A stretch of DNA of 45,713 nucleotides from a virus. The stretch is taken from the UHGV virus genome UHGV-0265688; one strand, written 5' to 3'. Both the position numbers and the translations under genes were made by a program. The notes under the pieces were generated by a model. It worked only from the letters and a program-made list of their open reading frames with translations, made no database searches and was not told where the DNA came from. This document shows positions 5,103-39,490 of this stretch, one piece after another; within the stretch, counting starts at the first letter, position 1, and every line of letters starts with the position of its first letter.

Positions 5103-5887
5103 CACGATACGAGAACATACCCGAAGAATTGAAAAGGTTGAATCAATGGGTCTGTACTCGCAGTGACAGCAAGGTTCCGATGAAAGCGTTTGAGCGGGAA
5201 GCCGCTTCCTCCACCAATCCAGAAACATGGTCTTCCTTCGACACGGCTCTCAAGGCTGTGTCGGAGGGACACTATGACTACTGCGGGTTCGTCTTTAACG
5301 ACAATGGTTATGTGGGAATTGACATAGACGATGGCTACGATCAGGACGGGTTTCTGTCCCCGCTGGCGGCTGAAATCATAGGGTTGTGTGAAAGCTACAC
5401 CGAGAAGTCCAAGAGCGGTAGGGGCTTTCACATTCTCCTTAAAGGGACACTCCCTTTTAAGGGAAAAAACAACCTCGCAGGAGTGGAGATTTACAAGGCG
5501 GCTCGGTACTTCATCATGACTGGCGATACGCTCTTATATGACACCATTGAGGAAGACCAAGGTGCGATTGACTATGTGATAGAGAAGTTCTTTCCCGAAA
5601 CCAGAGAGGAAAAAGACGGGGAGCGGTACGGAGGTCGGATTTATTCACCGATATGGGCATGGCCTGAGAACAACCGAATCAAACTTCGTCCCGTTTATCC
5701 CCGGATTCCAGACGGGAGCAGAAATATCTGTCTGACCTCGCTGGCGGGTATGTTACACAATCAGGGTTACAGCAAGCAACAGATTTACGATGAACTTCTG
5801 TATGCGAACATGGTAGCCTGTGACCCGCCCCTTGACCGAAATGAGATTAGAACTATCTGCAACAGCGTCACCCGATACAAAAGATAG
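5099..5887 (+). CDS. DNA primase, prim-pol (bifunctional primase/polymerase N-domain) plus PriCT_1 C-terminal domain
   Basis: TTG start 5099, 6 nt after AAGGAGGAG, TTGA-coupled to the previous stop. Motifs GFVFNDNGYVGIDIDDG, SKSGRGFHIL, GVEIY..RYFIMTG (prim-pol). GSRNICLTSLAGML (PriCT_1). The track's TTG 5045 start lacks an RBS. Confidence 0.6.
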   Translation: MTRYENIPEELKRLNQWVCTRSDSKVPMKAFEREAASSTNPETWSSFDTALKAVSEGHYDYCGFVFNDNGYVGIDIDDGYDQDGFLSPLAAEIIGLCESYTEKSKSGRGFHILLKGTLPFKGKNNLAGVEIYKAARYFIMTGDTLLYDTIEEDQGAIDYVIEKFFPETREEKDGERYGGRIYSPIWAWPENNRIKLRPVYPRIPDGSRNICLTSLAGMLHNQGYSKQQIYDELLYANMVACDPPLDRNEIRTICNSVTRYKR

Positions 5888-6936: not shown

Positions 6937-7525
6937 CCCCATCGAAACCATTGCGAAAATCGCAAGTATCTGCTATGACAGCGACCCCAAGAACCCGCTC
7001 GGACTGGTGAAACACCTGTACCGCAATGGACATCACAGTGTCTTTGAACACATCTATTTTACCTTCAAAATCGAGGGTATCTCTCGTGCCTGTTCTCACC
7101 AGCTCGTGCGGCACCGGCACTGTAGTTTCACTCAGAGGTCTCAGAGGTACTGTTCCGAGGACGGTTTCAAAGTCGTGTGTCCCGGCACTGTCGTTGCCAT
7201 GGGTGGGCAGTATGACTACGGAGCCGTAGTGAATCGTATCTCAGAGTTTTACGAAGAAGCTCAACAAGTCGGTATTCCCAACGAGGACGCAAGGTACATT
7301 CTCCCCAACGCCTGTGAGACCTCGATGTATCTCTCCTGCAACTTGAGAGAGCTTATTCACATGGCGAACGAGCGACTGTGCATGAGAGCGCAGTGGGAAA
7401 TCCGGGAGCTGGTACAACAGATGGTCTACTGTGTGAACGCTGACCTGTGGTTCATGCTGGTTCCCAAGTGTAAGAGCGGTCGTATTATCTGCAATGACCC
7501 CTGTGGGAAAGTAGGTGCTTTGTGA
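6905..7525 (+). CDS. thyX: Flavin-dependent thymidylate synthase ThyX
   Basis: RBS GAGGAGGA then ATG 6905. HHSVFEH and the RHR...S..Q.SQRY ThyX signature (QLVRHRHCSFTQRSQRY). Start overlaps the dam 3' end. Confidence 0.8.
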   Translation: MTVTLIQATPDPIETIAKIASICYDSDPKNPLGLVKHLYRNGHHSVFEHIYFTFKIEGISRACSHQLVRHRHCSFTQRSQRYCSEDGFKVVCPGTVVAMGGQYDYGAVVNRISEFYEEAQQVGIPNEDARYILPNACETSMYLSCNLRELIHMANERLCMRAQWEIRELVQQMVYCVNADLWFMLVPKCKSGRIICNDPCGKVGAL

Positions 7526-7683
7526 TGGACGAAGGCAATAAAATCTGCCCTCTCTTTTACGCTTCTTCGGAGTGTAACACTCTAAAGGCTTGTGAGTGCC
7601 AGAAAGAGAGATGCGCATGGTGGGTTGAGGATAAACAGAAATGCGCTATTGCAGTAGGAGGTGAACGCAGTCGTGGCAAGTGA
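7525..7683 (+). CDS. 52-aa Cys-rich small protein (MDEGNKICPLFYASSECNTLKACECQKERCAWWVEDKQKCAI...)
   Basis: ATG overlaps the thyX stop (TGATGG). Seven Cys. Below the ORF-track cutoff. 3' end overlaps the primase-helicase start region. Confidence 0.3.
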   Translation: MDEGNKICPLFYASSECNTLKACECQKERCAWWVEDKQKCAIAVGGERSRGK

Positions 7684-9196
7684 TAGAGAGCTTTTTGAAC
7701 TCCGCAACGGAAGGGTTATCATGGACGAAGACCTGTCCGAAAAAATGTATATCATCAAGTCATATCACCCTGAGAAAGCCGATGAAACCAGTTCCGGGTT
7801 TGAATGGTCGGAAATGGGCATGGCAAACCTGTTTGGTATGCTCTACAACCGGGAAGCCCGATACTGCACAGAGCATAAGAGCTGGTACACCTACTTCGAG
7901 GGCGCATGGCGCAAAGACGAGGGGGCAATCCTTGTCTCTGAGAAAATCAAGGACTTTGTGCGGCTGATGATTCTCTACTGCGGGGAGATCGTGGACGATG
8001 AAATCCGAAAAGCCTACACCTCTTTTGTGAACAAAATGGGTGACAGGCGCATGAGGGACAGAATACTCAAAGACGCTACAGGCGAGCTTCGTATCTCTGC
8101 CACTGAGTTTGACGCTGACCCATACCTTATAAACTGTCTGAACGGCACCTACTCCCTCCGGGATTTTTCTTTTCGGGAAGCTAAGTGGGACGATTTTCTC
8201 ACCATGCAGACCAATTTTCGTCACACTGTCCGCAGGGACATCAAGTGTGAACGGTGGGAGCAGTTTATTGACGAAGTTACACAGGGCGATAAGGACAAGG
8301 CCGATTTCCTACAACGCTCCCTTGGTTATTCTATCCTTGGTATGAGCAATGAGGAGTGTATGTTCATTCTTCATGGTAAAACGACCCGTAACGGAAAATC
8401 CACCTTGCTCAACACCATTGAAACCATGCTTGGTGATTACGCCAAGGTTGCACCTGTCGGTATGATCTGCCGGGGAGACAGGCAGAAGGACGCAGAAGCG
8501 GCTTCCCCTACCCTTGCTGGTCTAAAAGGCAAGCGGTTTGTTACCATGTCGGAAAGCAATGAGTACGGTAAACTGGACGAGGAGAAAATCAAGCATTTTA
8601 CAGGCGGTGAAGAAATTTCAGCTCGTGCGCTGTACCAGTCAGCAATCACTTTCAAACCGCAATTTACGCTCTGGCTTTCCTGTAACGACCTGCCCATGGT
8701 GACAGACAAGAGCTTGTTCGCTTCGGAGCGTATCAAGGTTATTGAGTTTAACCGGCACTTCTCCCCCGCCGAGCAGGACACGCACCTTAAAGACGAGCTT
8801 ACTTCTCAGGAAGCCATGAGCGGTATCTTCATGTGGCTGGTGCGTGGGTACATCAAGTACAAAGAGCATGGGCTTACCATGTCGGAGCCGCTAAGGTCTG
8901 TCGTGGCAAGGTATGAGCGAGACAATGACCTTGTGCTCCAATTCCTTGAAAACCGCTGTGTACGGGTTCCAGAGGAAGAATACAACCCGCTTGGTGAGAA
9001 GAATAAGTGGACAACTATCAGAGCCAAAGACCTCTACCAAGCGTTCAAAATATGGGCGAAATCCGAGGGTGCTTATGTACTCTCTGCAAGAAAATTCAAC
9101 TCTGAAATGGAGCGTCACCCTGAGTGGTTTGACCGCAAATCGACTTCCAGCGGTTTCGTAATCTATTGGGGCTTGAAGCTCAAGGAGATAGTGTGA
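7661..9196 (+). CDS. Phage/plasmid primase-helicase, P4/D5 family (D5_N plus SF3 P-loop NTPase)
   Basis: Walker A ILHGKTTRNGKST, Walker B-like VTMSES. Typical D5 C-terminal region. Start ambiguous (GTG 7661/7673 after GGAGGTG, or ATG 7721). Confidence 0.75.
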   Translation: MNAVVASDRELFELRNGRVIMDEDLSEKMYIIKSYHPEKADETSSGFEWSEMGMANLFGMLYNREARYCTEHKSWYTYFEGAWRKDEGAILVSEKIKDFVRLMILYCGEIVDDEIRKAYTSFVNKMGDRRMRDRILKDATGELRISATEFDADPYLINCLNGTYSLRDFSFREAKWDDFLTMQTNFRHTVRRDIKCERWEQFIDEVTQGDKDKADFLQRSLGYSILGMSNEECMFILHGKTTRNGKSTLLNTIETMLGDYAKVAPVGMICRGDRQKDAEAASPTLAGLKGKRFVTMSESNEYGKLDEEKIKHFTGGEEISARALYQSAITFKPQFTLWLSCNDLPMVTDKSLFASERIKVIEFNRHFSPAEQDTHLKDELTSQEAMSGIFMWLVRGYIKYKEHGLTMSEPLRSVVARYERDNDLVLQFLENRCVRVPEEEYNPLGEKNKWTTIRAKDLYQAFKIWAKSEGAYVLSARKFNSEMERHPEWFDRKSTSSGFVIYWGLKLKEIV

Positions 9197-23318: not shown

Positions 23319-23755
23319 GTGAATCGCTGTCCTCCACTGAGGGGAGTGGTGGTAGTTCTGCCACTGCTCCCCTCTCCACTTACACGGAAAAATTCAACGA
23401 GTTGTTTCCCCATTACCTGTCCTTCGGCATGACCGAGGAGCAGTATTGGGATAAAGATTGTACGCTTGTGGCGGCGTACCGTAAAGCGGAAGAACTCAGA
23501 ATGAATCGCAGAAATCAGGAAATGTGGCTACAAGGCGCATATTTCTATGACGCTCTGTGCCGGGTATCTCCTATTCTTCACGCTTTCGCCAAAAAGGGCG
23601 CAAAGCCTGTGCCGTATCTTTCGGAAGCCTACGCGCTTACTGAAAAACAGGTGGAACTCCGACAGGAGGAACACGCCAAGGGGGTGTACGACAAGGGCAA
23701 GAAACTGATGGAAGGGTTCATGGCAAGCCACAATAAAAAGTTTGAAGGGAAGTGA
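22989..23755 (+). CDS. Tail assembly chaperone G-T fusion produced by -1 programmed frameshift at 23288-23294
   Basis: The downstream ORF (23312-23755) is in the -1 frame, overlaps the G stop, and is read continuously after slippage on G GGA AAC. Confidence 0.6.
23288..23294 (+). promoter_or_regulatory. -1 programmed ribosomal frameshift slippery heptamer GGGAAAC (X XXY YYZ in the G frame)
   Basis: Zero-frame codons are gag|gga|aac, so the heptamer is correctly phased. Conserved G-T arrangement upstream of the tape measure. Confidence 0.65.
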
Positions 23756-26700
23756 GCATTATGTCTACCACAATCGAGCAGTTGGAGCTTGAAATACAAT
23801 CTAATTCTACATCTGCCGTTGGCGGGATAGACGCACTTTCCGAGTCTCTGAGACGGTTGAAAGCCGCTACCGCTCCTGTAAGCAAGGGCGGCGTTGGGCT
23901 TGGCGCACTGTCTAACTCTTTGAAGAAATTCAGCCAGAGTGTTTCTGGTTTGACCGGGCTTACTCTTGCAAGGGAGCAGGTGCAAGGGCTTGTAGACGCT
24001 CTCAAGCCTTTAGAGAGCGTTCAAAAATCCGGGTTCAATTCTCTGGCTTCCGGGCTGGATAAGCTCGTAAAAATTGCTCCGCAGATTGACACTGTTACAG
24101 AATCGCTGAAAAAGACTGACCTTGATTCTTTCGCAGACCAGTGCAATCGGGTTGCTACCGCTATCACCCCTCTTGCCACTCAGATGGAGAAGGTGGCGGC
24201 TGGTTTCTCTGCCTTTCCTGCCAAGATTCAGAGGTTGCTCAAGGGGAACACGAACCTTGCCGCAAGCAACACTGTGTTGGGCAAGTCCTATGTGAACCTC
24301 GCCGCAAAAATCAGTGCGGCTTACATCGGGCTGAAATCCATCACGAGCGTTATTGCCGGGTGGATTACCGCTTCAAACAGCTACATCGAAAACCTCAACC
24401 TGTTCAATGTGTCCATGGGGCAGTATGCAGAGGAAGCCCGAAATTACGCAGAGCAGGTCGGAGAAGTTATGGGTATCAACCCCGGCGAGTGGATGCGCAA
24501 TCAGGGTGTCTTTATGACAATCACTGAGGGCTTCGGCGTTGCGAGCGACCGGGCTTACACCATGAGCAAAAACCTCACCCAGCTCACCTACGATTTGGCT
24601 TCGTTCTTCAATATCAGCACCTCTGACGCTTTCCAGAAGTTGGAGTCTGGTATCTCCGGTGAGCTTGAGCCGCTTCGTAGGCTTGGTTACGACCTATCTG
24701 TGGCTCGTCTGCAACAGGAAGCATACAACCTTGGCATTGAGAAAAGCGTTACGGCAATGACTCAGGCTGAAAAAGCCGAGTTGCGCTACTACGCAATCAT
24801 GACGCAGGTTACAAACGCACAGGGCGATATGGCTCGTACACTGGAAGCCCCGGCAAACCAGCTTCGTATTCTGCAAGCTCAGGTGGAACAGGCCACTCGT
24901 GCGCTGGGTAATCTGTTCCTTCCCATTCTGAAAGCTATTCTGCCGTATGCAATCGCTCTGGCGAAAGCAATCCGCATGGTCGCTGAAATTATTGCCGGTT
25001 TCTTCGGTGTCTCGATTCCTGAGTTTGACATGGGGACAGACGCAATCGGCGGCGTAGCGAGCGGCGCAGGTGAAGCGGCTGACGGTTTGGGAGACGCTTC
25101 CAAAAAGGCAAAAGAGCTGAAAAACGCACTGCTCGGTATTGACGAGCTGAATGTTATCTCTCCCCCGGAGGATTCCAGTGGCGGTGCCGGTGGTGCTGGT
25201 GGCATTGGCGGCGGGGGCGGTCTTGGCTTTGAGCTTCCCACCTATGACTTCATTGCAGACGCAGTGAACGAACAGGTTGACAAGATCATGGCGAAAATTC
25301 AGCCCTTCCTCGATTGGGTAAGGGAAAACATTGATGAAATCCTTGCAGGTGTGCTCGCTGTTGGTGCGGCGTTCCTTGCTTGGAGAATCGCCAAGAGTGT
25401 ACAGGACTTCCTGCGGTGGCTGTCCACCATGAAGGGATTTAACATCACAGGTAGTATTGCTTTCAAAATTGCGGGGCTTGGCCTGTTCTTGGACGCATGG
25501 AACACCATGAAGGAAGCCATTCAAGACATCATGGCGAACGGCCCCAACTTCACCAATGTTACCAAGCTCATGAGCGGTTTCGCAGAAGCCCTCGGAGCGG
25601 CGTTCCTGCTCTTTGGCAATATCAAAATGGCGGGAGCTATGTTGGTTATTTCCGGGCTTACAGGTATTGTCTCCGCTATCAGCGACATGGTGAACAACGG
25701 TGTGAATTGGGACAATGCGCTCTTTCTGGTGAAAAACCTCGGCCTGTTCCTAAGTGGGCTGGGTATGCTGACAGGAAACACAAAGCTGGCTGGCATTGGT
25801 CTGATTATCAGCGGTGCTACGCTCATTGTGGACAACCTTAAAGGATTCCTTGAAGCAATCAGAACCGGCGATTGGTCGAATGTCAACATGGTGGAGGTTG
25901 CCGCTGGTGCGCTCATGCTGGTCGGTGGGTTTATCCTCACTCTCAAGAAACTGGACGCACTGAAAGACAGCGCAACCGCAGGTCAAGCGGCAAAACAGGC
26001 ACTTGAAACGGTAACTGACACAACCTCCAAAATCGACACTACAGTCAGCACCGGCCTTTCTCCCAAGCTCACTTCTCTGGCGAAAAACCTTGGGTTGGGT
26101 CTGGTAGTCATAGCGGAAGTCACAGCGGCGGCACTGCTCATTGTAGGTGCAATCGCACTGCTCGGTATGGAACTGGAACAGGTCGGTATTGCTTGGGAAC
26201 CTGTCATTGCCAATGGTGAGACGGTTGCAATCGCAATCGGTCTTGGTGCGGCGATCTTGGGCGCAGTCGGTTTAGCCGCTTATGCCCTCGGTACAGGCGG
26301 TGCGACCATTGCGCTGAACATCGGTATCGGTACTGCCATTTTGCTTGAACTCGGTGTAGCCGCTGGACTGTTCATCGTTGAGATATGGGCTATCGGTAAG
26401 GGCTTGGACGAAATCGGTCAGGCATGGCAACCTGTTCTGGATAACGGAGAAGCTATTGCAACCGCTATTGGTATCGGCACTGGTCTACTGGTCGGTATCG
26501 GCGTTGTTACGGCGGCTCTCGGCGTGGCTACGGTTGCTTCGGCGGGTCTGTTGCCTTTGGCTATCGGGCTTGGTACAGCTCTGCTTGTGGAGCTTGCGGC
26601 GGCATTTATCCTCTTTGTGGAAAGTCTGGTCGCTGTAGCGGACGAGCTGAACTATCGGCTCGACCCGCCTTTGATGGCGTTGAACGAAAAGCTCCCCGGC

Positions 26701-28092
26701 TTGTCCAGCAATATGAGCGATTTCGTTGACTTCATGACGGAGTTTGCGGGACAGGTGGTGCGGTACACAGAGGTGTCCGCTATCGCTGGCCTGAGCGCAA
26801 CGATTGACACCATCATCGGCTGGTTTACGCAAGACCCTATTGAGAAGCTGGCAAGTGATGTGGAGAATATTTCCGAGCAGACCTCCAACCTCAACGACAA
26901 GCTGGCAATCGCTGTTCCTGAGTTGCAGACTGCCGCAGACCTGTTGCAGGAATATAAAGACCTCCTGACGCAGATTGAGAACCTGTGTGACAGCAATGTG
27001 GAGCTATCCACTGGTATGTTTGTCAACATGAAGGAGGTCGGACAGAGCCTTGTAACCGGCTTTGTGGACGGTATTCAGTCGAAATCCGGGGACTTCAAAA
27101 ATGCGGCGAGGGATTTGGTAGAGGGCTTCAAGACACAGCTCACCAGCAGTGCCGAGACCTGCCGCTCCACCATGACCGCTTGGGCTTCTAATGTAAAGAA
27201 CTGGTTCACGCAGAGCAGTTACGGCGCAATCAACCGTACCACCTTCCAGAACTACGCAAAAGATGTGGTGTCTGGCTTCGCTTCTGGTATCACCAGCTTC
27301 TACAATAGCTCAAAATCGAGCGTCACCACATGGGCTTCCAATGTGAAGCAGTGGTTTACTGGAAGCGGCTATGGTGCGGTAAACCGTACCACCTTCCAGA
27401 ACTACGCAAAGGACATCGTAAGCGGTTTTGGTAGCGGCGTTACCAGCTCCTACAATAGCTCAAAGTCCAGCATTACTTCTTGGGCTTCCAATGTGAAATC
27501 GTGGTTCAGCGACATTGCTTCCCGCAGTGCGTTCTACGAAATCGCAAGGGATGTTGTGAACGGTTTTAACTCTGGTATCAACGACCTGTACTACACCTCC
27601 CGCCGCTATATGCGTGAGTGGGCAAATGACGCAATCGCCGCATTTAAGTCTGAATTGGATTCCAATTCTCCCTCCAAGGTGTTCGAACGCATTGGCGGGG
27701 ACACCGTTCTTGGCTACAACAACGGGATTACCACTCTTGGAAAGACCACCAAGGGTGTTGTGGACAGTTGGGCAAACTCCTTCACCAGCGTAAGCCCTGT
27801 CATGCGGTTTGCGGTAGACACCTCCGCTCTCAAATATTACACCAGTGATTCGTTCGCCAAGTCGGTATCTGCCGATGTAACAAGCAACCGCAATCTCTCT
27901 GTCACCGGCTTTGAGGAGTGCATGAAGGAGTTCTACAAGGAGTATGTCGAACCCACGCTGTCTCAGATGGCAGACGATATGCGCCGACAGGCTGATAAAA
28001 ACGAGCAGACCATTGTTCAGATCGGCAACCGCACTGTCACTGACGCTGTAACCACTCAGCGCAAAGCCAACGGTTATGAGTTCGTGAAGTAA
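23752..28092 (+). CDS. Tape measure protein (1446 aa)
   Basis: Coiled-coil N-terminal part, multiple transmembrane/Gly-Ala-rich segments, C-terminal tandem ~50-aa repeats. Canonical position. Confidence 0.8.
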   Translation: MSIMSTTIEQLELEIQSNSTSAVGGIDALSESLRRLKAATAPVSKGGVGLGALSNSLKKFSQSVSGLTGLTLAREQVQGLVDALKPLESVQKSGFNSLASGLDKLVKIAPQIDTVTESLKKTDLDSFADQCNRVATAITPLATQMEKVAAGFSAFPAKIQRLLKGNTNLAASNTVLGKSYVNLAAKISAAYIGLKSITSVIAGWITASNSYIENLNLFNVSMGQYAEEARNYAEQVGEVMGINPGEWMRNQGVFMTITEGFGVASDRAYTMSKNLTQLTYDLASFFNISTSDAFQKLESGISGELEPLRRLGYDLSVARLQQEAYNLGIEKSVTAMTQAEKAELRYYAIMTQVTNAQGDMARTLEAPANQLRILQAQVEQATRALGNLFLPILKAILPYAIALAKAIRMVAEIIAGFFGVSIPEFDMGTDAIGGVASGAGEAADGLGDASKKAKELKNALLGIDELNVISPPEDSSGGAGGAGGIGGGGGLGFELPTYDFIADAVNEQVDKIMAKIQPFLDWVRENIDEILAGVLAVGAAFLAWRIAKSVQDFLRWLSTMKGFNITGSIAFKIAGLGLFLDAWNTMKEAIQDIMANGPNFTNVTKLMSGFAEALGAAFLLFGNIKMAGAMLVISGLTGIVSAISDMVNNGVNWDNALFLVKNLGLFLSGLGMLTGNTKLAGIGLIISGATLIVDNLKGFLEAIRTGDWSNVNMVEVAAGALMLVGGFILTLKKLDALKDSATAGQAAKQALETVTDTTSKIDTTVSTGLSPKLTSLAKNLGLGLVVIAEVTAAALLIVGAIALLGMELEQVGIAWEPVIANGETVAIAIGLGAAILGAVGLAAYALGTGGATIALNIGIGTAILLELGVAAGLFIVEIWAIGKGLDEIGQAWQPVLDNGEAIATAIGIGTGLLVGIGVVTAALGVATVASAGLLPLAIGLGTALLVELAAAFILFVESLVAVADELNYRLDPPLMALNEKLPGLSSNMSDFVDFMTEFAGQVVRYTEVSAIAGLSATIDTIIGWFTQDPIEKLASDVENISEQTSNLNDKLAIAVPELQTAADLLQEYKDLLTQIENLCDSNVELSTGMFVNMKEVGQSLVTGFVDGIQSKSGDFKNAARDLVEGFKTQLTSSAETCRSTMTAWASNVKNWFTQSSYGAINRTTFQNYAKDVVSGFASGITSFYNSSKSSVTTWASNVKQWFTGSGYGAVNRTTFQNYAKDIVSGFGSGVTSSYNSSKSSITSWASNVKSWFSDIASRSAFYEIARDVVNGFNSGINDLYYTSRRYMREWANDAIAAFKSELDSNSPSKVFERIGGDTVLGYNNGITTLGKTTKGVVDSWANSFTSVSPVMRFAVDTSALKYYTSDSFAKSVSADVTSNRNLSVTGFEECMKEFYKEYVEPTLSQMADDMRRQADKNEQTIVQIGNRTVTDAVTTQRKANGYEFVK
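27187..27560 (+). repeat. About 2.5 tandem copies of a 150-bp (50-aa) repeat inside the tape measure gene (WASNVK.WF...NRTTFQNYAKD.VSGF.SG.TS.YNSSKSS)
   Basis: Nucleotide units start at 27190, 27341 and 27491 with high identity. Confidence 0.7.
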
Positions 28093-31845: not shown

Positions 31846-33780
31846 ATGAGCTGGGCAGAAGCAAAATGGGTGGTAGATAATATCCTGCAAAAGACAGGAC
31901 AGGCACCCAACAACATGAGAGCGTTTACCGCTTTCGCAAAATCCAGCACCACCATTGGGCTGAGATTTCTGGAACCCGAAGACAGCTATGACAGCGTAGG
32001 TAATCTGCTCTGTTCGGTCGGCGGCGTAATGATTCGCATGGGTGAAGATGGCTACCCCGCCAGCACCACCGAAGGTACGCTGGTTATCGACAACAAAGAG
32101 CTTGGAAAATATGCAACCGAGGAGTACACCGTGAGCGGTCTGACCGAGGGGAAGACCTACTACTTCTCCGCTTTCCCGTATTCCTCTCAGGGCGTGTACA
32201 ACCTGTCAAGCAATGAGAAAAACCGGGCGAGTGCCGCTCCTGCCGATGGGGAAACGGCAAATGTCACCATCAACATTGACGATGACAGCGCATTTAACAG
32301 CGTCACAATCACCTGTGTGGACGAGACGGACGGGCAGTACACCAAGACCGCCACTCTCACCAAGACGCAGAAAAAGGCTTCTTTCACCGTCCCCATCGGA
32401 CACACCTATCACATCGAGTACGGTGCGGAGGACGGGTATTCCAAGCCTGAGAACACCGAAGTCAAGGTGTCTGTGGCGGGTGCTGTATCGAACTATGAAG
32501 CAACCTACTACTATTTTACCGCCACCATTGATGTCACCTACCCGGCAGGAGCGACCTGTACCTGCTCCCTCGATAGCACGACCTATACCGCAACCGGCAC
32601 CAGCGGCAGGTATCAGTTCAAGGTACACAAGGTCGGCACATGGACTGTGAAAGCGACCAGCGGCGGCGAGTCCGCTTCCGAGCAGGTTGTGATTACATCG
32701 GATGGGCAGAGCGAAACGGTGGAGCTGTCTTTTGTGAAAATCTTCGGTATCAGCCGGGATATTAAAGCGTCCTCCCCTGTGTGGGCGAGAACCGACATGG
32801 CAGTGGGCATGACCGCCACCGCTTCTATCGGCACAAACGCAGGTCACAGCGATTTCGATGATGTCATGCCTTGGAAGGGCATGGTGCGGGAAACCCTCTC
32901 TACCAACGATGTGATGGTGAAAATCCCGAAATTCTACTACCGCCGCTATCGTGAGGGGACGGTTGAGCACATTCAGATCGCAGACAAGCCTACGGCTGGT
33001 TTCTCGGTACACCCCCTGTTCAATCACGCAGGTCGGGAGTGCGACCATGCCTATGTGGGTGCGTACAAGACTTCCAGCAACAATAAATCCGTCTCCGGGG
33101 CAAGTCCGCAAGCGTCACAGACAAGAGCCACTTTCCGCAGTAACGCCAAGGCGAAGGGCGCAGGATGGAGCCTGATTGACATTGCGGCGGTGTCTGCCAT
33201 TCAAATGCTCATGCTGGTGGAGTTTGCAAACAACAATGTGCAGAGCGTTATTGGCAGAGGATATTGTGACGGAAGCAGCGGCTCGCTGAGAACCGGGTCT
33301 TGCAACAGCGTTCCCAACCTCACCGGCAGACCTTCTGGCACAGACGGTAAGACCGGAGTTGTCTACAGAGGTATCGAGGACTTCTGGGGCAATGTATGGG
33401 AATGGGTCGATGGCGTGAACTGGAACGGCGGCACTTACTACATCTGCAACGACCCTTCCAAGTACGCTGACGATACTGCAACCGGCTACACTCAGCTTTC
33501 CTTCAAGGGAGCGACAAACTGGGGTAGCTCCTATATCACCGAGGAGGGTCTGGACACCGGGGCAAATCCCCATGTCATGCTTCCTTCTGCGGCTGGTAGC
33601 GGCAGTGAGTCCACTTATATGTGTGACGCTTGTTGGAGTAGCACAGGATGGCGGGTGTTCCGGCACGGCGGTTATTGGGTTAATGGGTTGGAGTGCGGTC
33701 TGTTTACGGCTGATTTGTACTACACTTCGTCTGATTCCGGCGCGCGCGTTGGCTCTCGCCTGCTTTATATCCCCTCCTGA
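31846..33780 (+). CDS. Tail fiber / receptor-binding protein with C-terminal C-type-lectin / FGE-sulfatase-like domain. This is the target gene of the diversity-generating retroelement (DGR).
   Basis: ATG overlaps the upstream stop (TAAATGAG). C-terminal RGIEDFWGNVWEWVDG is the FGE/CLec-fold signature, the fold used by DGR variable proteins such as Bordetella phage Mtd. The last ~40 codons are the variable repeat. Confidence 0.7.
   Translation: MSWAEAKWVVDNILQKTGQAPNNMRAFTAFAKSSTTIGLRFLEPEDSYDSVGNLLCSVGGVMIRMGEDGYPASTTEGTLVIDNKELGKYATEEYTVSGLTEGKTYYFSAFPYSSQGVYNLSSNEKNRASAAPADGETANVTINIDDDSAFNSVTITCVDETDGQYTKTATLTKTQKKASFTVPIGHTYHIEYGAEDGYSKPENTEVKVSVAGAVSNYEATYYYFTATIDVTYPAGATCTCSLDSTTYTATGTSGRYQFKVHKVGTWTVKATSGGESASEQVVITSDGQSETVELSFVKIFGISRDIKASSPVWARTDMAVGMTATASIGTNAGHSDFDDVMPWKGMVRETLSTNDVMVKIPKFYYRRYREGTVEHIQIADKPTAGFSVHPLFNHAGRECDHAYVGAYKTSSNNKSVSGASPQASQTRATFRSNAKAKGAGWSLIDIAAVSAIQMLMLVEFANNNVQSVIGRGYCDGSSGSLRTGSCNSVPNLTGRPSGTDGKTGVVYRGIEDFWGNVWEWVDGVNWNGGTYYICNDPSKYADDTATGYTQLSFKGATNWGSSYITEEGLDTGANPHVMLPSAAGSGSESTYMCDACWSSTGWRVFRHGGYWVNGLECGLFTADLYYTSSDSGARVGSRLLYIPS
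33647..33766 (+). repeat. DGR variable repeat (VR) at the 3' end of the tail fiber gene
   Basis: Gap-free ~120-bp alignment to 33861-33980 (offset 214). 22 mismatches lie at TR adenine positions; 1 mismatch is not at an A. Confidence 0.8.
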
Positions 33781-33785
33781 GGGGG

Positions 33786-33808
33786 TGTGGGGGATTTCCT
33801 CCCCCACA
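33786..33808 (+). other. GC-rich hairpin immediately downstream of VR (TGTGGGGGA-tttcc-TCCCCCACA)
   Basis: Perfect 9-bp stem 6 nt after the tail-fiber stop. DGR target sites commonly carry such a hairpin/cruciform downstream of the initiation-of-mutagenic-homing region. Confidence 0.55.
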
Positions 33809-33860
33809 TAAGTGGGCGAACACACCGTATTGAAAATCGAAACACGCTAAGGCGAACAGT

Positions 33861-33980
33861 AAAAGCGAGTGTTCCAACACGGCAGTAATTGGAATAATGG
33901 GTCGAAATGCGGTCTGTTTACGGCTAATTTGAACAACACTTCGTCTGATTCCAACACGAACATTGGCTCTCGCCTACTTT
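33861..33980 (+). repeat. DGR template repeat (TR), noncoding, A-rich (AAC-codon-phased) copy of the VR
   Basis: See VR. TR has A where VR has G/T/C at 22 positions (for example CCAACACGAACATT versus CCGGCGCGCGCGTT). Lies between the target gene and the reverse transcriptase. Confidence 0.8.
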
Positions 33981-34095
33981 TGTTAAAAGGTAATATCATT
34001 GGTCGCTGTTTCGCCGTACCCATTGGTAAAAAATAGTTTGGAGGGACAGGGTTAGTAGGTTCACTCTCGAAAACCCTGTAAGAAACAAAAAGCAG

Positions 34096-35193
34096 ATGAA
34101 AAGGTTTGGATTCCTCTATGAACGGATAGTTTCAGTGGAAAATTGCAGACTGGCTATCCTCAACGCTTCTCAAAAGAAGAAAAAGCGAAAAATGGTGAAA
34201 GAAGTCCTTGATAATTTGGAGCATTACGCCAACGACCTTTCCGAGCGAATGAGCCGCATGGATTTTCTCTCCCCATATAAGACCCGTATCATCAAGGACG
34301 GGTTATCTGGAAAAGAACGGGAACTGCAAGTCCCAGCGTTCTACCCCGACCAGTGCGCACACCACGCCATTATGCAGATTCTCAAGCCGATTATTGAGAA
34401 ATCGTCCTACCGATGGAGTTGCGCCAATATCCCCAACCGGGGCATTGACCTTGCTTGCAAGGGTGTGGAGAGAGCCACTGTGCGGGACAGGAAACACGCT
34501 AAATATTGCGTGAAAATGGACATTAGCAAGTTCTACCCGTCTATTCCTCATGGCAAGCTGAAAGCCCGACTGCGAGAGAAAATCAAAGACGAAAAGGCTT
34601 TGCAAATCATCTTCAAGGTGATTGACTCCCACAATCCGGGGCTTCCCATCGGGAACTATACTTCCCCTTGGCTGGCAGAACTATACTTGCAACCGCTGGA
34701 TTACCTTATCAAGCAAAAGCACCGAATACGACACTATATCCGCTACGCTGACGATCTGGTGCTGATAGACAGCAATAAACGAAAACTGAGGAAAGCTCTT
34801 CACGACATTTTCCTATTTGTGGAGGAGCTGGGCATGACAGTGAAACACGACTACCAGTTGTTTCGTATTCAGCCATACTGCAAGGAACGGACAGGCCGCA
34901 GGGGACGGAAGATAGATTTTGTAGGGAGGTGTTTCGGAATTGGTTTTACCACCATCCGAAAGAGGAGGGCGTTGGCACTTATGCGGCAGAGCAGGTTTAT
35001 TCAGAAGCTACAGCGGCAGAACCGGCCTGTCTCATACAGAATGGCTTCCGGGTTTCTCTCCCGGTGCGCCTGTTTCAAGCACACCAATTCATACGCCATG
35101 AAGAAAAAGTACTATGAAACGGTCAACATCAAAAAGTTAAAGGAGGTTGTTAGCAATGAGAGTAAGAGGAAATGTCTCGCCCAACTCGCTTAG
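34096..35193 (+). CDS. DGR-type reverse transcriptase
   Basis: N-terminus FLYERIVSVENCRLAILNASQKKKKRK typical of DGR RTs. Motifs QVPAFYPDQ, SPWLAELYL (SP.LAN-like), catalytic YADD (IRYADDLVLI). Confidence 0.8.
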   Translation: MKRFGFLYERIVSVENCRLAILNASQKKKKRKMVKEVLDNLEHYANDLSERMSRMDFLSPYKTRIIKDGLSGKERELQVPAFYPDQCAHHAIMQILKPIIEKSSYRWSCANIPNRGIDLACKGVERATVRDRKHAKYCVKMDISKFYPSIPHGKLKARLREKIKDEKALQIIFKVIDSHNPGLPIGNYTSPWLAELYLQPLDYLIKQKHRIRHYIRYADDLVLIDSNKRKLRKALHDIFLFVEELGMTVKHDYQLFRIQPYCKERTGRRGRKIDFVGRCFGIGFTTIRKRRALALMRQSRFIQKLQRQNRPVSYRMASGFLSRCACFKHTNSYAMKKKYYETVNIKKLKEVVSNESKRKCLAQLA

Positions 35194-35473
35194 TATTGAG
35201 CCGTTCGCACCCATGCCGGGATATGTGGAAGTTCGTCTGCGGGAGAACATCAAAGAGGTCACGGAAGTCGATGAAATGACGGAGCAGGAAATCCCGATGT
35301 TCGAGTATGACGAATATACCTTCCATCTGGCGAACAAAGAGGGTCTGCGGGAGGAAATCGAAGGAAATCTGAGCGACTGGCTTGTCACTGGCAGGACGCT
35401 TGAAATCAACGAGGGCGCAAGCATTGTGCAGGACATGAAAGAAGCTCTGGAAATCGTGGGGGTGAATATATGA
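35156..35473 (+). CDS. small acidic hypothetical protein
   Basis: ATG 35156 after AAGGAGGTTGTTAGCA. Overlaps the RT 3' end. Acidic, so unlike the basic Avd. Confidence 0.4.
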   Translation: MRVRGNVSPNSLSIEPFAPMPGYVEVRLRENIKEVTEVDEMTEQEIPMFEYDEYTFHLANKEGLREEIEGNLSDWLVTGRTLEINEGASIVQDMKEALEIVGVNI

Positions 35474-35895
35474 ACATGATCGAACAGGCACAGGCAATCC
35501 GGGAAGCTATGGACTACGCAGGAGCAAGCCTTGACGAGGACACCGCTCTGATTTGCGTTGCGCTCTACCGCCCATGGGAAGTTGGCGTTGCGTATAAGCA
35601 GAACGACCGCTTCACCTACGGCGTAAACAGTGTGGGAGACCCCCAGCTTTACAAGGTGGCACAGGCACACACCTCTCAGGCTGACTGGCTACCCGATAAG
35701 ACCCCGGCGTTGTACACCCCAATCGGGCTTGACGAGAGTGGCTACCCCATCTGGTCGAAGCCCACGGGGGCGCATGACGCTTACAACAAAGGGGACATCG
35801 TGAACTACAACGGCAAGCTGTACCAGTCTACGATTGACGGAAACACTTGGTCTCCCGATGAATACCCGGCAGGTTGGGTCGAATACACCGAGTAA
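35470..35895 (+). CDS. protein with C-terminal CBM5/12-like carbohydrate-binding motif
   Basis: ATGA-coupled. C-terminus YNKGDIVNYNGKLYQSTIDGNTWSPDEYPAGW resembles the chitin-binding type 3 motif (GD.V.YNG..Y.A.....W.P....W). Confidence 0.45.
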   Translation: MNMIEQAQAIREAMDYAGASLDEDTALICVALYRPWEVGVAYKQNDRFTYGVNSVGDPQLYKVAQAHTSQADWLPDKTPALYTPIGLDESGYPIWSKPTGAHDAYNKGDIVNYNGKLYQSTIDGNTWSPDEYPAGWVEYTE

Positions 35896-37927: not shown

Positions 37928-37958
37928 AGAGGAGGTGGGCGTTTAACCTACCTCCTCT
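37928..37958. terminator. bidirectional hairpin terminator (AGAGGAGGTgggcgtttaACCTACCTCCTCT) overlapping the integrase stop codon
   Basis: 9-bp GC-rich stem. T-rich on the minus strand beyond it (GTTTTGTTTGTAAATTATT). Confidence 0.5.
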
Positions 37959-39490
37959 ATATTCATAACAAACCCGAAACAGTGTTTTACAAAAAACAAG
38001 GTGTTCGGATTTGCACCTTTTGGTGGAGCCACACACGCTATATCCGAACACGAAAGTGTAGCTGTATTCTGTCCTGACATATTGAAGGTAAATACGATTC
38101 TTCTCCCCTTATCCCCATCGTCATAGATATATACGGAGTTCACCAGTGTGTCTATCACTCTGCGTCTGTACTCAATATCATTCACATTACCACTCTTGAA
38201 CGAATTGAGCCAGTGCATTATGCGCTCTTTCGTCAGGAGTGGTTTTTTCATTTCCTCACGAGCAATCTTCCCCTCCAAGTCGTTCTTCTCAGCTTCCAGC
38301 TCGTCCATTCGTTCCTTGGTGGTGGGTGTGATTATCCCCTGTTCGATGGCGTTCATGAGGTTTTTTATTTTCTTCTTAATGTCTTTCAGCTCGTTTTGAA
38401 GTCCGTTGAGGTAAGAGGTGTCAGCCGACTCCTTTTCGATAATCTCCATGGTCTTTCTGGCAATACGCTCTATGGTTTCATCATTCAATACATTTTGAAC
38501 GGTGAACCGCACCACCAGCTCCTCTATCCAATCCTTTTTCTCCACCGCCTTTTTGCACTTGTGATTTCGCTTACGGTCAATGCACTTGTAGTAGTGGTGG
38601 AGCTTGCCCGATCTGGAAGTGCCGCTTTCTCCGACCATGGAGGAGCCGCAATGACCGCAGAACAATTTTGTGGTGAGAAGATAATCGTCTTTAGCCTTAT
38701 TCCTCGCACGAGCCGAATAGTTGTGCCTGAGAGTGGCTTGGACTTTCTCAAATAACTCCCGGCTTATGATAGGCGGCACACCGTCCTCTACCACAACATC
38801 TGCGAAACGGTAGACCCCGATATACCTGTCGTTTTTCAGCATTGTGCGCAGACTGTTTTTGTTAAAGGCGTTCCCTCGTGAGGTTTTATACCCTCGTCTG
38901 TTGCACTCGTTGATAATCTGAGTTGCCGACATACCATCTGCATACATCTGAAAGATTTCTTGTACAATTTTCGCCCCAACGGGGTCGATTTTATACTTTC
39001 TATCTTCCCCTACAGTGTAGCCCAAGGGCATACCTGCCCCTCCTACGGCAAGGCACTGTAGGGCATTTTCTTTTAATCCTCGCTTGATGTTCCGGGACAG
39101 GTTCTCTGAATAGTATTCTGCGTACCCTTCCAGCACTGATTCCAGGATAATCCCTTCCGGGGTATCAGGCATGGGCTGTTTGGCGTAATAGACTTTCACG
39201 CCATTCTTTTTCAGCTTTGCTTTGTAAATAGCTGAATCATATCGGTTTCGGGCAAAGCGGTCAAGGGTGTACATTATCACCGCTTCAAATTGCCCCTTTT
39301 CACTGTCCTTTATGAGCCTTTGAAAGTTTGGACGATTATCGGTTTTACCTGAGATTGCTCTGTCGCAATATTCACCGATGATCGTCATTCCATTTTTCAG
39401 TGCAAAGTCGTGACACTCACGGAGCTGTCCCTCTATGGATTCCTCTCTCTGGTTATGGCTCGAATATCTGGCATAGATTACCGCTTTCGT
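37943..39490 (-). CDS. Large serine recombinase (phage integrase). No canonical start codon upstream of the catalytic serine.
   Basis: Minus-strand frame reads ...TTKAVIYARYSSHNQREESIEGQLRECHDFALKNGMTIIGEYCDRAISG then recombinase domain and a zinc ribbon (CGHCG...YYKC) with coiled-coil. The track starts at ATG 39388, downstream of the YARYSS active site. RBS GGAGGTGAT at 39493-39501. Codons between it and YAR are ACT ACG AAA GCG GTA ATC, with an in-frame TAA at 39512-39514. Confidence 0.65.
   Translation of the reverse strand, partial: TKAVIYARYSSHNQREESIEGQLRECHDFALKNGMTIIGEYCDRAISGKTDNRPNFQRLIKDSEKGQFEAVIMYTLDRFARNRYDSAIYKAKLKKNGVKVYYAKQPMPDTPEGIILESVLEGYAEYYSENLSRNIKRGLKENALQCLAVGGAGMPLGYTVGEDRKYKIDPVGAKIVQEIFQMYADGMSATQIINECNRRGYKTSRGNAFNKNSLRTMLKNDRYIGVYRFADVVVEDGVPPIISRELFEKVQATLRHNYSARARNKAKDDYLLTTKLFCGHCGSSMVGESGTSRSGKLHHYYKCIDRKRNHKCKKAVEKKDWIEELVVRFTVQNVLNDETIERIARKTMEIIEKESADTSYLNGLQNELKDIKKKIKNLMNAIEQGIITPTTKERMDELEAEKNDLEGKIAREEMKKPLLTKERIMHWLNSFKSGNVNDIEYRRRVIDTLVNSVYIYDDGDKGRRIVFTFNMSGQNTATLSCSDIACVAPPKGANPNTLFFVKHCFGFVMNIEEVG

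Follow-up and report, generated by a model that had tools for sequence, protein, structure and literature searches.

The 45,713-nt virus genome UHGV-0265688 (hereafter "the window", i.e. the whole stretch of DNA analyzed) very probably carries a diversity-generating retroelement (DGR) of minimal layout, in which a target gene, a template repeat (TR) and the gene for a reverse transcriptase (RT) follow one another without the accessory protein Avd. The element is located between the tail-fiber and lysis genes of a temperate siphovirus-type phage of gut Clostridia. A first-pass annotation made from the sequence had proposed a DGR that diversifies the tip of the tail fiber. This proposal is supported by mismatches between the TR and the variable repeat (VR) that are confined to template adenines, both in the window and in 53 pairs of repeats from related loci. 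The components of the element are listed below.

31846–33780, plus strand: target gene, 644-aa tail fiber or receptor-binding protein (open reading frame; PHROG 5302; profile match of the C-terminal domain)
33651–33748, plus strand: VR proper, codons 603–635 of 644, as delimited by the 53 TR/VR pairs and the near-identical loci L001–L004
33749–33766, plus strand: 3' end of the VR resembling an initiation of mutagenic homing (IMH) sequence, TTGGCTCTCGCCTGCTTT, 18 nt, with no adenine-type variation 3' of 33748
33865–33980, plus strand: TR, consisting of the template part (33865–33962) and IMH* (33963–33980)
34096–35193, plus strand: DGR RT, 365 aa, isoelectric point (pI) 10.1 (RVT_1, E 1.4e-16; PHROG 1423, E 4e-86; PDB 8ub7)

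Template and variable repeats

An ungapped alignment of positions 33647–33766 with positions 33861–33980 (offset 214) contains 23 mismatches among 120 positions. Twenty-two of these are found at TR adenines (16 A>G, 5 A>T and 1 A>C), and the sole mismatch at another base is a C>T exchange (TR 33903, VR 33689). The count of 22 differences at adenines and one elsewhere, without insertions or deletions, had been given in the first-pass annotation and was reproduced exactly. With 34 adenines among the 120 bases of the TR, the hypergeometric probability of this bias is 1.8e-14. The mismatches are mainly located at the first and second positions of AAC- and AAT-type codons, and the TR translated in frame reads ...NWNNGS...NLNNTSSDSNTN..., which is the usual design of a DGR template. 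Apart from the TR, nothing in the window matches the VR, and no second VR was found there.

The start of the VR had originally been placed at 33647. The repeat 33651–33766 was confirmed, but positions 33647–33650 read G-(A/T)-T-G in all 53 relatives, whereas the TR mostly has AAAA. These positions are flank and not VR. Consequently, three of the 22 adenine mismatches reflect divergence of the flank, and the true repeat holds 19 differences at adenines and one other. It begins at 33651, and the variation of the VR spans 33654–33748. The TR of the window contains 29 adenines across 18 codons, corresponding to approximately 4e15 possible protein sequences. The final 18 nt of the repeat are invariant. 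At repeat position 116 (33762 in the VR, 33976 in the TR) the VR has G in 52 of the 53 pairs and the TR has A in 51 of them. This difference is the distinction between IMH and IMH* rather than a result of mutagenesis.

At 33903/33689, the C/T difference results from a substitution private to the VR of the window. In the TR, the A at 33884 is private to the window as well, with G being present in 52 of the 53 TRs. By this G>A exchange codon 609 reads AGT in the TR while the VR keeps GGT, and a new mutable position has arisen. The exchange is a small example of an evolving template and, with it, an evolving set of diversifiable residues.

Related loci and recent activity

A search of IMG/VR with the RT protein (34096–35193) yielded 65 phage or prophage loci. 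Both repeats are present in 57 of them, from which 53 distinct TR/VR pairs were obtained. Among deposited phage genomes, a DNA search for near-identical sequences gave no match. Over repeat positions 5–104 of the 53 pairs, 846 of 1474 TR-adenine sites are altered in the cognate VR (438 to G, 242 to T and 166 to C), compared to only 21 of 3826 sites with another TR base. VR columns opposite TR adenines contain several bases, mostly all four, and the remaining columns copy the TR. Where the TRs are polymorphic at bases other than adenine (for example at repeat positions 11, 41, 56, 92, 107 and 110), the base counts of TR and VR are equal or nearly equal, as is predicted for copying from TR to VR. 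The same adenine-specific transfer is found in distant relatives. The loci L060, L064, L095 and L096 and the phage Arawn have TR/VR pairs of their own with 9–16 mismatches each, 66 of 67 being located at adenines. The RTs of these relatives are 59% (L060), 61–64% (L095 and L096), 37% (Arawn) and 34% (L064) identical to that of the window.

Near-identical phages differ from the window mainly within the VR. Locus L001 has 12 differences in 9302 positions outside the VR and 16 in 98 positions inside, and L002–L004 diverge by 0.46–0.47% outside and by 16–20% inside. The TRs of L001–L004 differ from that of the window only at 33884 (99.2% identity), while their VRs are 83–87% identical to the VR of the window. 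VRs that have diverged between near-identical phages imply homing since these genomes split. Thus, the DGR is recently active.

Alternatively, the element could be an inactive relic with old VR/TR differences, the fiber being no longer diversified in this phage. Function has clearly been lost in some relatives (L013/L092 and L015), and ordinary drift also acts on the repeats, as seen from the non-adenine difference at 33689 and the private TR mutation at 33884. However, the RT reading frame is intact and includes YADD, and the TR, the IMH, the hairpins and the RNA helices are intact as well. Moreover, in phages that are 99.5–99.9% identical to the window the VRs differ at 16–20 of 98 positions, and all of these differences fit adenine mutagenesis. 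A relic is therefore very unlikely.

The loss of function goes back to a rearrangement that was observed in two samples. In L013 (5700–5900; same contig as L092) and in L015 (1900–2110) the interval from VR to TR is deleted, and the tail-fiber reading frame enters the TR and its 3' flank. Such a collapse is expected from homologous recombination between VR and TR. The collapsed loci are devoid of the upstream strand of the TR-bracketing duplex described below. Probably, they represent dead DGRs in which an Asn-rich "template" tip has been frozen in the fiber.

Reverse transcriptase

The RT gene is separated from the TR by 115 nt. As stated in the first-pass annotation, it encodes a YADD motif, which is located at residues 217–220. 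A comparison with solved structures was used to distinguish between DGR, group II intron and retron RTs. In these structure-profile matches the DGR RT of Bordetella phage BPP-1 (8ub7) ranks first with an E value of 8.7e-19, compared to approximately 1e-12 for group II intron RTs and 1e-5 for retron RTs. At the C-terminus, 106 residues form a very basic segment (pI 10.9), and about 34 residues extend beyond the aligned end of the BPP-1 enzyme (bRT).

It could be argued that the enzyme is a group II intron or retron RT next to an unrelated duplication, since the top NCBIfam match is a group II intron RT/maturase model (95 bits) and some sources name homologues "retron-type reverse transcriptase". 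However, the NCBIfam models for group II, retron and defense RTs all score far below their cut-offs (95 compared to 300), and the Rfam scan gave no intron RNA family but only RT-18 and RT-17. Furthermore, a duplication leaves unexplained both the adenine-only pattern in 53 TR/VR pairs and the observation that near-identical phages differ almost only in the VR. We regard the probability of this alternative as negligible and retain the assignment as a DGR RT.

Motif 4 of the RT reads IGNYTSP (residues 185–191) and combines the DGR-type Ile with Pro instead of Gln at the last position. The Ile of this motif promotes misincorporation at adenines in bRT, and a terminal Pro is present in group II and retroviral RTs. 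The signature of DGR RTs is [I/V/L]GxxxSQ, whereas other RTs have QGxxxSP (Handa et al. 2021, PMC7826257). The variant is not restricted to the window. Among the 120 closest homologues listed, IGN(Y/F)TSP occurs in 114 and six fall outside the search pattern. The motif is also found in L060, L095 and L096, while SQ is kept in Arawn, Lactobacillus phage LBR48 and L064. Handa et al. (2021, PMC7826257) reported that in bRT the exchange Q187P leaves misincorporation at adenines normal. Since this exchange is tolerated in bRT, IGNYTSP can be regarded as a tolerated natural variant and is no argument against function.

The relative L096 (64% identity) contains a second, unrelated RT gene of 404 aa (7476–8959), about 1.7 kb downstream of its DGR RT. 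This gene is preceded by an Rfam RT-2 RNA (122 bits). It may encode a retron-like or defense RT in the same prophage.

RNA structure around the template repeat

The spacers between VR and TR and between TR and RT are variable apart from conserved islands. Three RNA features were assigned.

33851–33860, plus strand: 5' strand of a duplex, GGCGAACAGT, 4 nt upstream of the TR; a conserved island in the variable VR–TR spacer
34005–34015, plus strand: 3' strand of the duplex, GCTGT-T-TCGCC with 34010 bulged, forming 10 pairs with 33851–33860
34017–34092, plus strand: structured RNA of the TR–RT spacer, Rfam RT-18 (RF03021), identified by cmscan and covariation

The 10 pairs of the duplex bracket the TR. 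In the alignment 94.8% of the cells are paired, and three pairs have changed on both sides. Pairing is also kept with other sequences, namely CAACC:GGTTG in L033, CAGC:GCTG in L042 and GGCGAC...GAUGA:UUAUC...GUCGCC in L060. L096 has a perfect alternative duplex of 11 bp (GGCGATACAAT:ATTGTATCGCC).

Downstream of the duplex, the spacer consists of a 4-bp hairpin (34017–34028), an A-run and a 7-bp hairpin (34046–34079). The latter corresponds to the second hairpin between TR and RT that had been noticed in the first-pass annotation; it is real, forms part of RT-18 and shows compensatory changes in six of its seven pairs. In a 23-sequence alignment 21 pairs were tested. They are paired in 96.5% of cases, compared to 33–45% if the partners are slid by 1–3 columns, and compensatory changes occur in 10 of the 21 pairs. 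None of 500 shuffles reached the observed values. RNAalifold independently recovered both spacer hairpins. The single-sequence RNA fold of 33841–34100 is no better than those of shuffled sequences (z = 0.22). Hence, the helices are revealed by comparative analysis only.

The match to RT-18 has 51.3 bits (gathering threshold 41.3, E 1.4e-7) and covers the full model (1–84) with both hairpins kept. Of 15 other loci searched, 11 also have RT-18 immediately before the RT gene, among them LBR48 and metagenome-assembled genomes (MAGs) of Clostridia and Peptococcia (38% RT identity). TR/VR pairs were verified at most of these 11 loci, with L105 and L114 being outside that check. The motifs RT-1 to RT-19 have been described as located near RT genes, RT-10 being the spacer of BPP-1, and roles in DGRs or retrons were speculated (Weinberg et al. 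2017, NAR 45:10811, PMC5737381). In comparison to this general description, RT-18 is located here and at the 11 further loci between the TR of a DGR and its RT. The orphan motif thereby gains a concrete context as the TR–RT spacer of these DGRs.

The segment immediately 3' of the TR (33985–34004) varies in sequence and length among relatives. This lack of conservation fits a system without an Avd that would bind there.

No Shine-Dalgarno sequence is present near the ATG of the RT (AAGAAACAAAAAGCAGATG). The only GGAGG is located about 50 nt upstream (34040–34045), just 5' of the hairpin 34046–34079. This hairpin could bring GGAGG near the ATG and thus create a split ribosome-binding site, or translation of the RT could be kept weak. 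A further structured RNA was observed in L181, a locus without DGR: a DUF3800-VIII RNA (Rfam RF03075, 49.9 bits) at 5663–5727, approximately 1.4 kb downstream of the tail-fiber module.

Inverted repeats downstream of the variable repeat

The VR is followed by a putative recognition element for homing.

33771–33808, strand not applicable: two GC-rich inverted repeats, candidate target-site cruciform (DNA fold; conservation at 57 loci)

The first stem has 5 bp (33771–33784) and spans the TGA stop codon of the target gene. The second is a perfect 9-bp stem with a 5-nt loop (TGTGGGGGA/TTTCC/TCCCCCACA, 33786–33808). In the DNA fold of 33760–33815 both stems are formed (-14.3 kcal/mol, z = -3.5). 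The 9-bp hairpin had been correctly located before, but not its distance from the repeat: it starts 19 nt after the end of the VR/TR homology, and the 6 nt originally given are the distance from the stop codon. In 56 of the 57 loci a perfect stem of 6 bp or more begins 19–23 nt after the repeat, and in 48 of them it comprises 9 bp and starts at 19–20 nt. The loops vary, and the VR-side stem shows a compensatory change from T-A to C-G (TGTGGGGGA/TCCCCCACA to TGCGGGGGA/TCCCCCGCA). A comparable hairpin after the TR was found in none of the 57 loci. The arrangement corresponds to the GC-rich inverted repeat by which homing is promoted in BPP-1 and Legionella; a high-confidence repeat is present in 34% of DGRs (Wu et al. 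2018, PMC5758913).

The repeats might instead serve mainly as a terminator or mRNA stabilizer of the tail-fiber gene. They are located at the 3' end of a gene, with one stem across the stop codon, and Wu et al. (2018, PMC5758913) pointed out that such repeats could be terminators, only 34% of DGRs having one of high confidence. However, no T tract follows the 9-bp stem, which is therefore no canonical terminator, and the site was not called in the terminator scan. In addition, the stem keeps its distance of 19–23 nt (mostly 19–20 nt) from the IMH in 56 of 57 loci, its pairing is preserved by a compensatory change, and no such stem follows the TR. A predominant role in termination or stabilization is thus rather unlikely, although it retains some probability, and a role as terminator and one in homing are not mutually exclusive.

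Absence of Avd and the neighboring reading frame

Canonical Avd is a basic four-helix bundle of approximately 110–130 aa (PF05635). The gap of about 95 nt between VR and TR contains no gene. In agreement with the first-pass annotation, which had recognized no Avd-like gene, PF05635 is absent from the 100 open reading frames of 85–190 aa in the whole window. To call this unusual for phage DGRs was overstated, however. Among 372 DGRs analyzed by Wu et al. (2018, PMC5758913), 75 belong to Architecture A, i.e. TR and RT without an accessory gene; these authors described an RT lineage without avd and inferred Avd-independent homing. The same order of target, TR and RT without Avd is found in L064, L095, L096 and the phages Arawn and LBR48, and thus in relatives down to 34–37% RT identity.

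The only small reading frame nearby follows the RT gene.

35156–35473, plus strand: ORF105, acidic 105-aa neighbor, not part of the DGR (349 homologues; its start overlaps the 3' end of the RT gene by 38 nt)

As described earlier, the product is acidic (pI 4.3). ORF105 has no match in Pfam, PHROG, NCBIfam or PDB, and tblastn against phage genomes gave no match either. The predicted model is beta-rich with two helices (pLDDT, the predicted local distance difference test score, 63). Judged from gene context, ORF105 probably belongs to the tail-fiber module, since in L181 a homologue follows a tail-fiber homologue without an RT.

A different explanation would be that ORF105 is a new accessory factor replacing Avd, comparable to the acidic CH1 proteins. 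CH1 is a small acidic accessory protein of 160–169 aa (pI ~4.7) that is conserved beside DGRs without Avd in Bacteroides lineage 3a (Wu et al. 2018, PMC5758913). ORF105 follows the RT in relatives down to 61–64% RT identity, and the two reading frames overlap by approximately 40 nt (38 nt in the window as well as in L095, 44 nt in L096), which suggests translational coupling. ORF105 is acidic like CH1 (pI 4.7), and it fits none of the known families. On the other hand, L181 has a 42% identical ORF105 homologue directly after a 53% identical tail-fiber homologue, with neither RT nor TR, and in L176, where a homologue is 70% identical, the 3.4 kb upstream contain neither RT nor target. In L095 ORF105 and the protein encoded downstream are fused. 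No homologue was detectable after the RT of L060 (59% RT identity), Arawn and L064. ORF105 is also shorter than CH1 (105 compared to 160–169 aa), it occurs in phages of Clostridia, and its predicted beta-rich fold includes no helical bundle. ORF105 as a substitute for Avd was rejected on the basis of L181, L176 and L095, and we consider such a function improbable. The preferred assignment is a component of the tail-fiber module.

ORF105 and the next gene, which encodes a 141-aa CBM5/12 protein, are separate in the window (35156–35895), whereas in L095 (6061–6843) ORF105 and a C-terminal extension form one protein of 260 aa. If this extension is homologous to the CBM5/12 protein, the two products would have a joint function, perhaps that of an accessory tail component binding carbohydrates.

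Target gene and host phage

The target protein belongs to PHROG 5302, "tail protein" (E 3e-70, residues 354–644). Its C-terminal ~300 residues comprise a putative C-type-lectin-fold domain with a GNVWEWV motif. A profile of this domain matches only TaqVP (PDB 5VF4, E 4.4e-4) and botrocetin (E 6.7e-3), which is a C-type lectin-like protein. TaqVP is the DGR variable protein of a Thermus aquaticus prophage; it has an FGE-type C-type-lectin fold and a C-terminal VR (PDB 5VF4). A second, sub-threshold stretch of the TaqVP profile alignment places VR against VR. The N-terminal 340 residues presumably form a fiber or Ig-like part (CarboxypepD_reg-like, sub-threshold).

The target gene is located after the tape-measure and distal-tail genes and before the genes for the CBM5/12 protein, holin and amidase. 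The window approximates a nearly complete temperate phage genome, which also encodes a large serine recombinase, a PemK/MazF-type toxin, a Dam methylase and a dATP/dGTP diphosphohydrolase in addition to holin and amidase. The tape-measure gene is located at 23752–28092, and a further example of these features is found at 37943–39388 on the minus strand. Among the close relatives, L004 is a 46.4-kb contig with 99.5% identity to the window over the region compared. Genome matches of the RT are found in an Acutalibacter MAG (90%), an Oscillospiraceae MAG (80%), the isolate Lacrimispora defluvii (81%) and Lachnospiraceae MAGs. Based on these sequence matches, the hosts of the phage family are assigned to the Clostridia.

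Proposed mechanism and significance

From the conserved elements the following sequence of events can be proposed. The transcript of approximately 33850–34095 would fold such that the 10-bp duplex (33851–33860:34005–34015) brackets the TR and the RT-18 structure (34017–34092) is placed shortly before the start codon of the RT gene. The RT from this gene, which follows immediately, would bind this RNA and, presumably primed in cis, copy the TR from the IMH* at its 3' end toward the bracketing duplex, where cDNA synthesis may stop. Opposite the 29 template adenines it would insert near-random nucleotides. The cDNA would then replace the VR (33651–33748), with the IMH (G33762) and the GC-rich inverted repeats 19 nt farther downstream marking the recipient. 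These repeats might assist homing as a cruciform. In this way the receptor-binding protein, with its probable lectin fold, would be recoded at 18 codons of its C-terminal tip, and host recognition may be altered. For cis-priming, the duplex as a stop for the cDNA, homing by way of a cruciform and the change of host range, the proposal draws on analogy with Bordetella phage BPP-1. The adenine-specific transfer from TR to VR with its recent activity, the conserved and covarying RNA helices, the conserved hairpin found only at the VR and the absence of Avd are shown by the sequences.

Several observations weigh against the assignment as a functional DGR with a lectin-type target, or against parts of the proposed mechanism. 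First, the RT signature lacks the final Gln of the DGR motif (IGNYTSP). Second, activity is deduced from comparison between genomes and not from reads within one population. Third, the target domain is less clear than originally assumed. An FGE/C-type-lectin-like domain had been proposed, and the profile match to TaqVP agrees with this, but a Pfam scan of the target gave no FGE-sulfatase or lectin domain. The AlphaFold model of the C-terminus has a pLDDT of 43 and is unusable; the underlying alignment contains 43 sequences of 72–83% identity. A lectin fold of this region is nevertheless likely, judging from a weak profile match (E 4e-4). Fourth, RNAalifold predicted a template:primer duplex between CTTTTGTT (33977–33984) and AACAAAAAG (34084–34092), of which both strands are invariant, so that covariation is absent. 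By chance alone, complementarity over 8 nt is not uncommon in 260 nt, and L095 lacks the 3' partner; this candidate was set aside. Equally possible is that UUUUG pairs instead with the conserved (U/C)AAAA within the A-run. Finally, Avd is essential in the sole DGR for which reverse transcription has been reconstituted. Hence, details known from BPP-1 may not transfer.

Tentatively, and with somewhat less than even confidence, we propose that this clade represents a self-sufficient two-component DGR. It would consist of an RT with IGxxxSP and a basic C-terminal extension and of an RNA with the bracketing duplex and the RT-18 scaffold, and would perform cis-primed, adenine-mutagenic cDNA synthesis without Avd or any other dedicated protein. 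If this is true, it would be a minimal natural DGR, and a related prophage is available in the cultivable Lacrimispora defluvii (81% RT identity).

DGRs directed at tail fibers of gut phages have already been catalogued in large numbers, and virus-specific DGR clades targeting tail proteins of Firmicutes phages have been described (Roux et al. 2021). The existence of one more is not news. Avd-less DGRs with the order target, TR and RT are already known, too, and the element is an ordinary member of this group. Its value is that of a well-documented case from a subgroup whose mechanism is unstudied. Biochemistry and cryo-EM so far all derive from the Avd-dependent BPP-1 system, and the survey of conserved DGR RNA elements included only DGRs with Avd homologues. 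Avd-independent homing now becomes testable by means of the duplex and the stem-loop/A-run, which persist without Avd, the context of RT-18 and the natural Gln-to-Pro exchange in the RT motif. For the directed-evolution systems in E. coli that are now being built from BPP-1 parts, a smaller DGR without Avd would likewise be interesting. A preprint of July 2026 on DGRs in E. coli used only bRT and Avd of BPP-1 and provides no precedent for Avd-free activity.

Comparison with known systems

The element corresponds to Architecture A (Wu et al. 2018, NAR 46:11, PMC5758913) in that target, TR and RT are located on one strand and avd, HRDC, MSL and CH1 are absent. The main text of that study discusses neither the IGxxxSP motif nor the RT-18 spacer.

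Among deposited phage genomes the closest RTs (37% identity) are those of Lactobacillus phage LBR48 and the Butyrivibrio phages Arawn and Idris, which are isolated phages of Bacillota. Their DGRs are located at the same site between tail genes and the lysis cassette and have the same order of target, TR and RT without Avd. In contrast to the window, these RTs keep the canonical ...SQ, and targets and phage backbones are distantly related. RT-18 is found upstream of the RT in LBR48 as in the window, whereas Arawn has no RT-18 match at the gathering threshold. In the LBR48 record (NC_027990.1, L098:18–590) the 3' end of the target gene contains ambiguity codes that translate as X, which suggests heterogeneity of the VR in the sequenced lysate. 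The target gene is unannotated in this record, and the way the record is split leaves target, TR and RT at its very start.

TaqVP is the only significant solved-structure match of the target domain. The likeness consists of the alignment of the GNVWEWV region and is very weak (E 4.4e-4), and the target of the window has in addition an N-terminal part of 340 aa.

The most detailed comparison is possible with the BPP-1 DGR (mtd-avd-TR-brt). The window has neither avd nor a conserved stem-loop immediately 3' of the TR, where BPP-1 has the Avd-binding stem-loop. Its spacer is RT-18 instead of RT-10, motif 4 of the RT reads IGNYTSP instead of IGSLTSQ, and at its C-terminus the RT is longer than bRT by about 34 residues. 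Nevertheless, bRT is the best solved-structure match of the RT. Both systems target a tail fiber whose last ~100 nt form the VR and transfer sequence from TR to VR in an adenine-specific manner. Both share the IMH/IMH* distinction with a GC-rich inverted repeat beyond the IMH, a structured RNA in the spacer between TR and RT, and a duplex between segments on either side of the TR.

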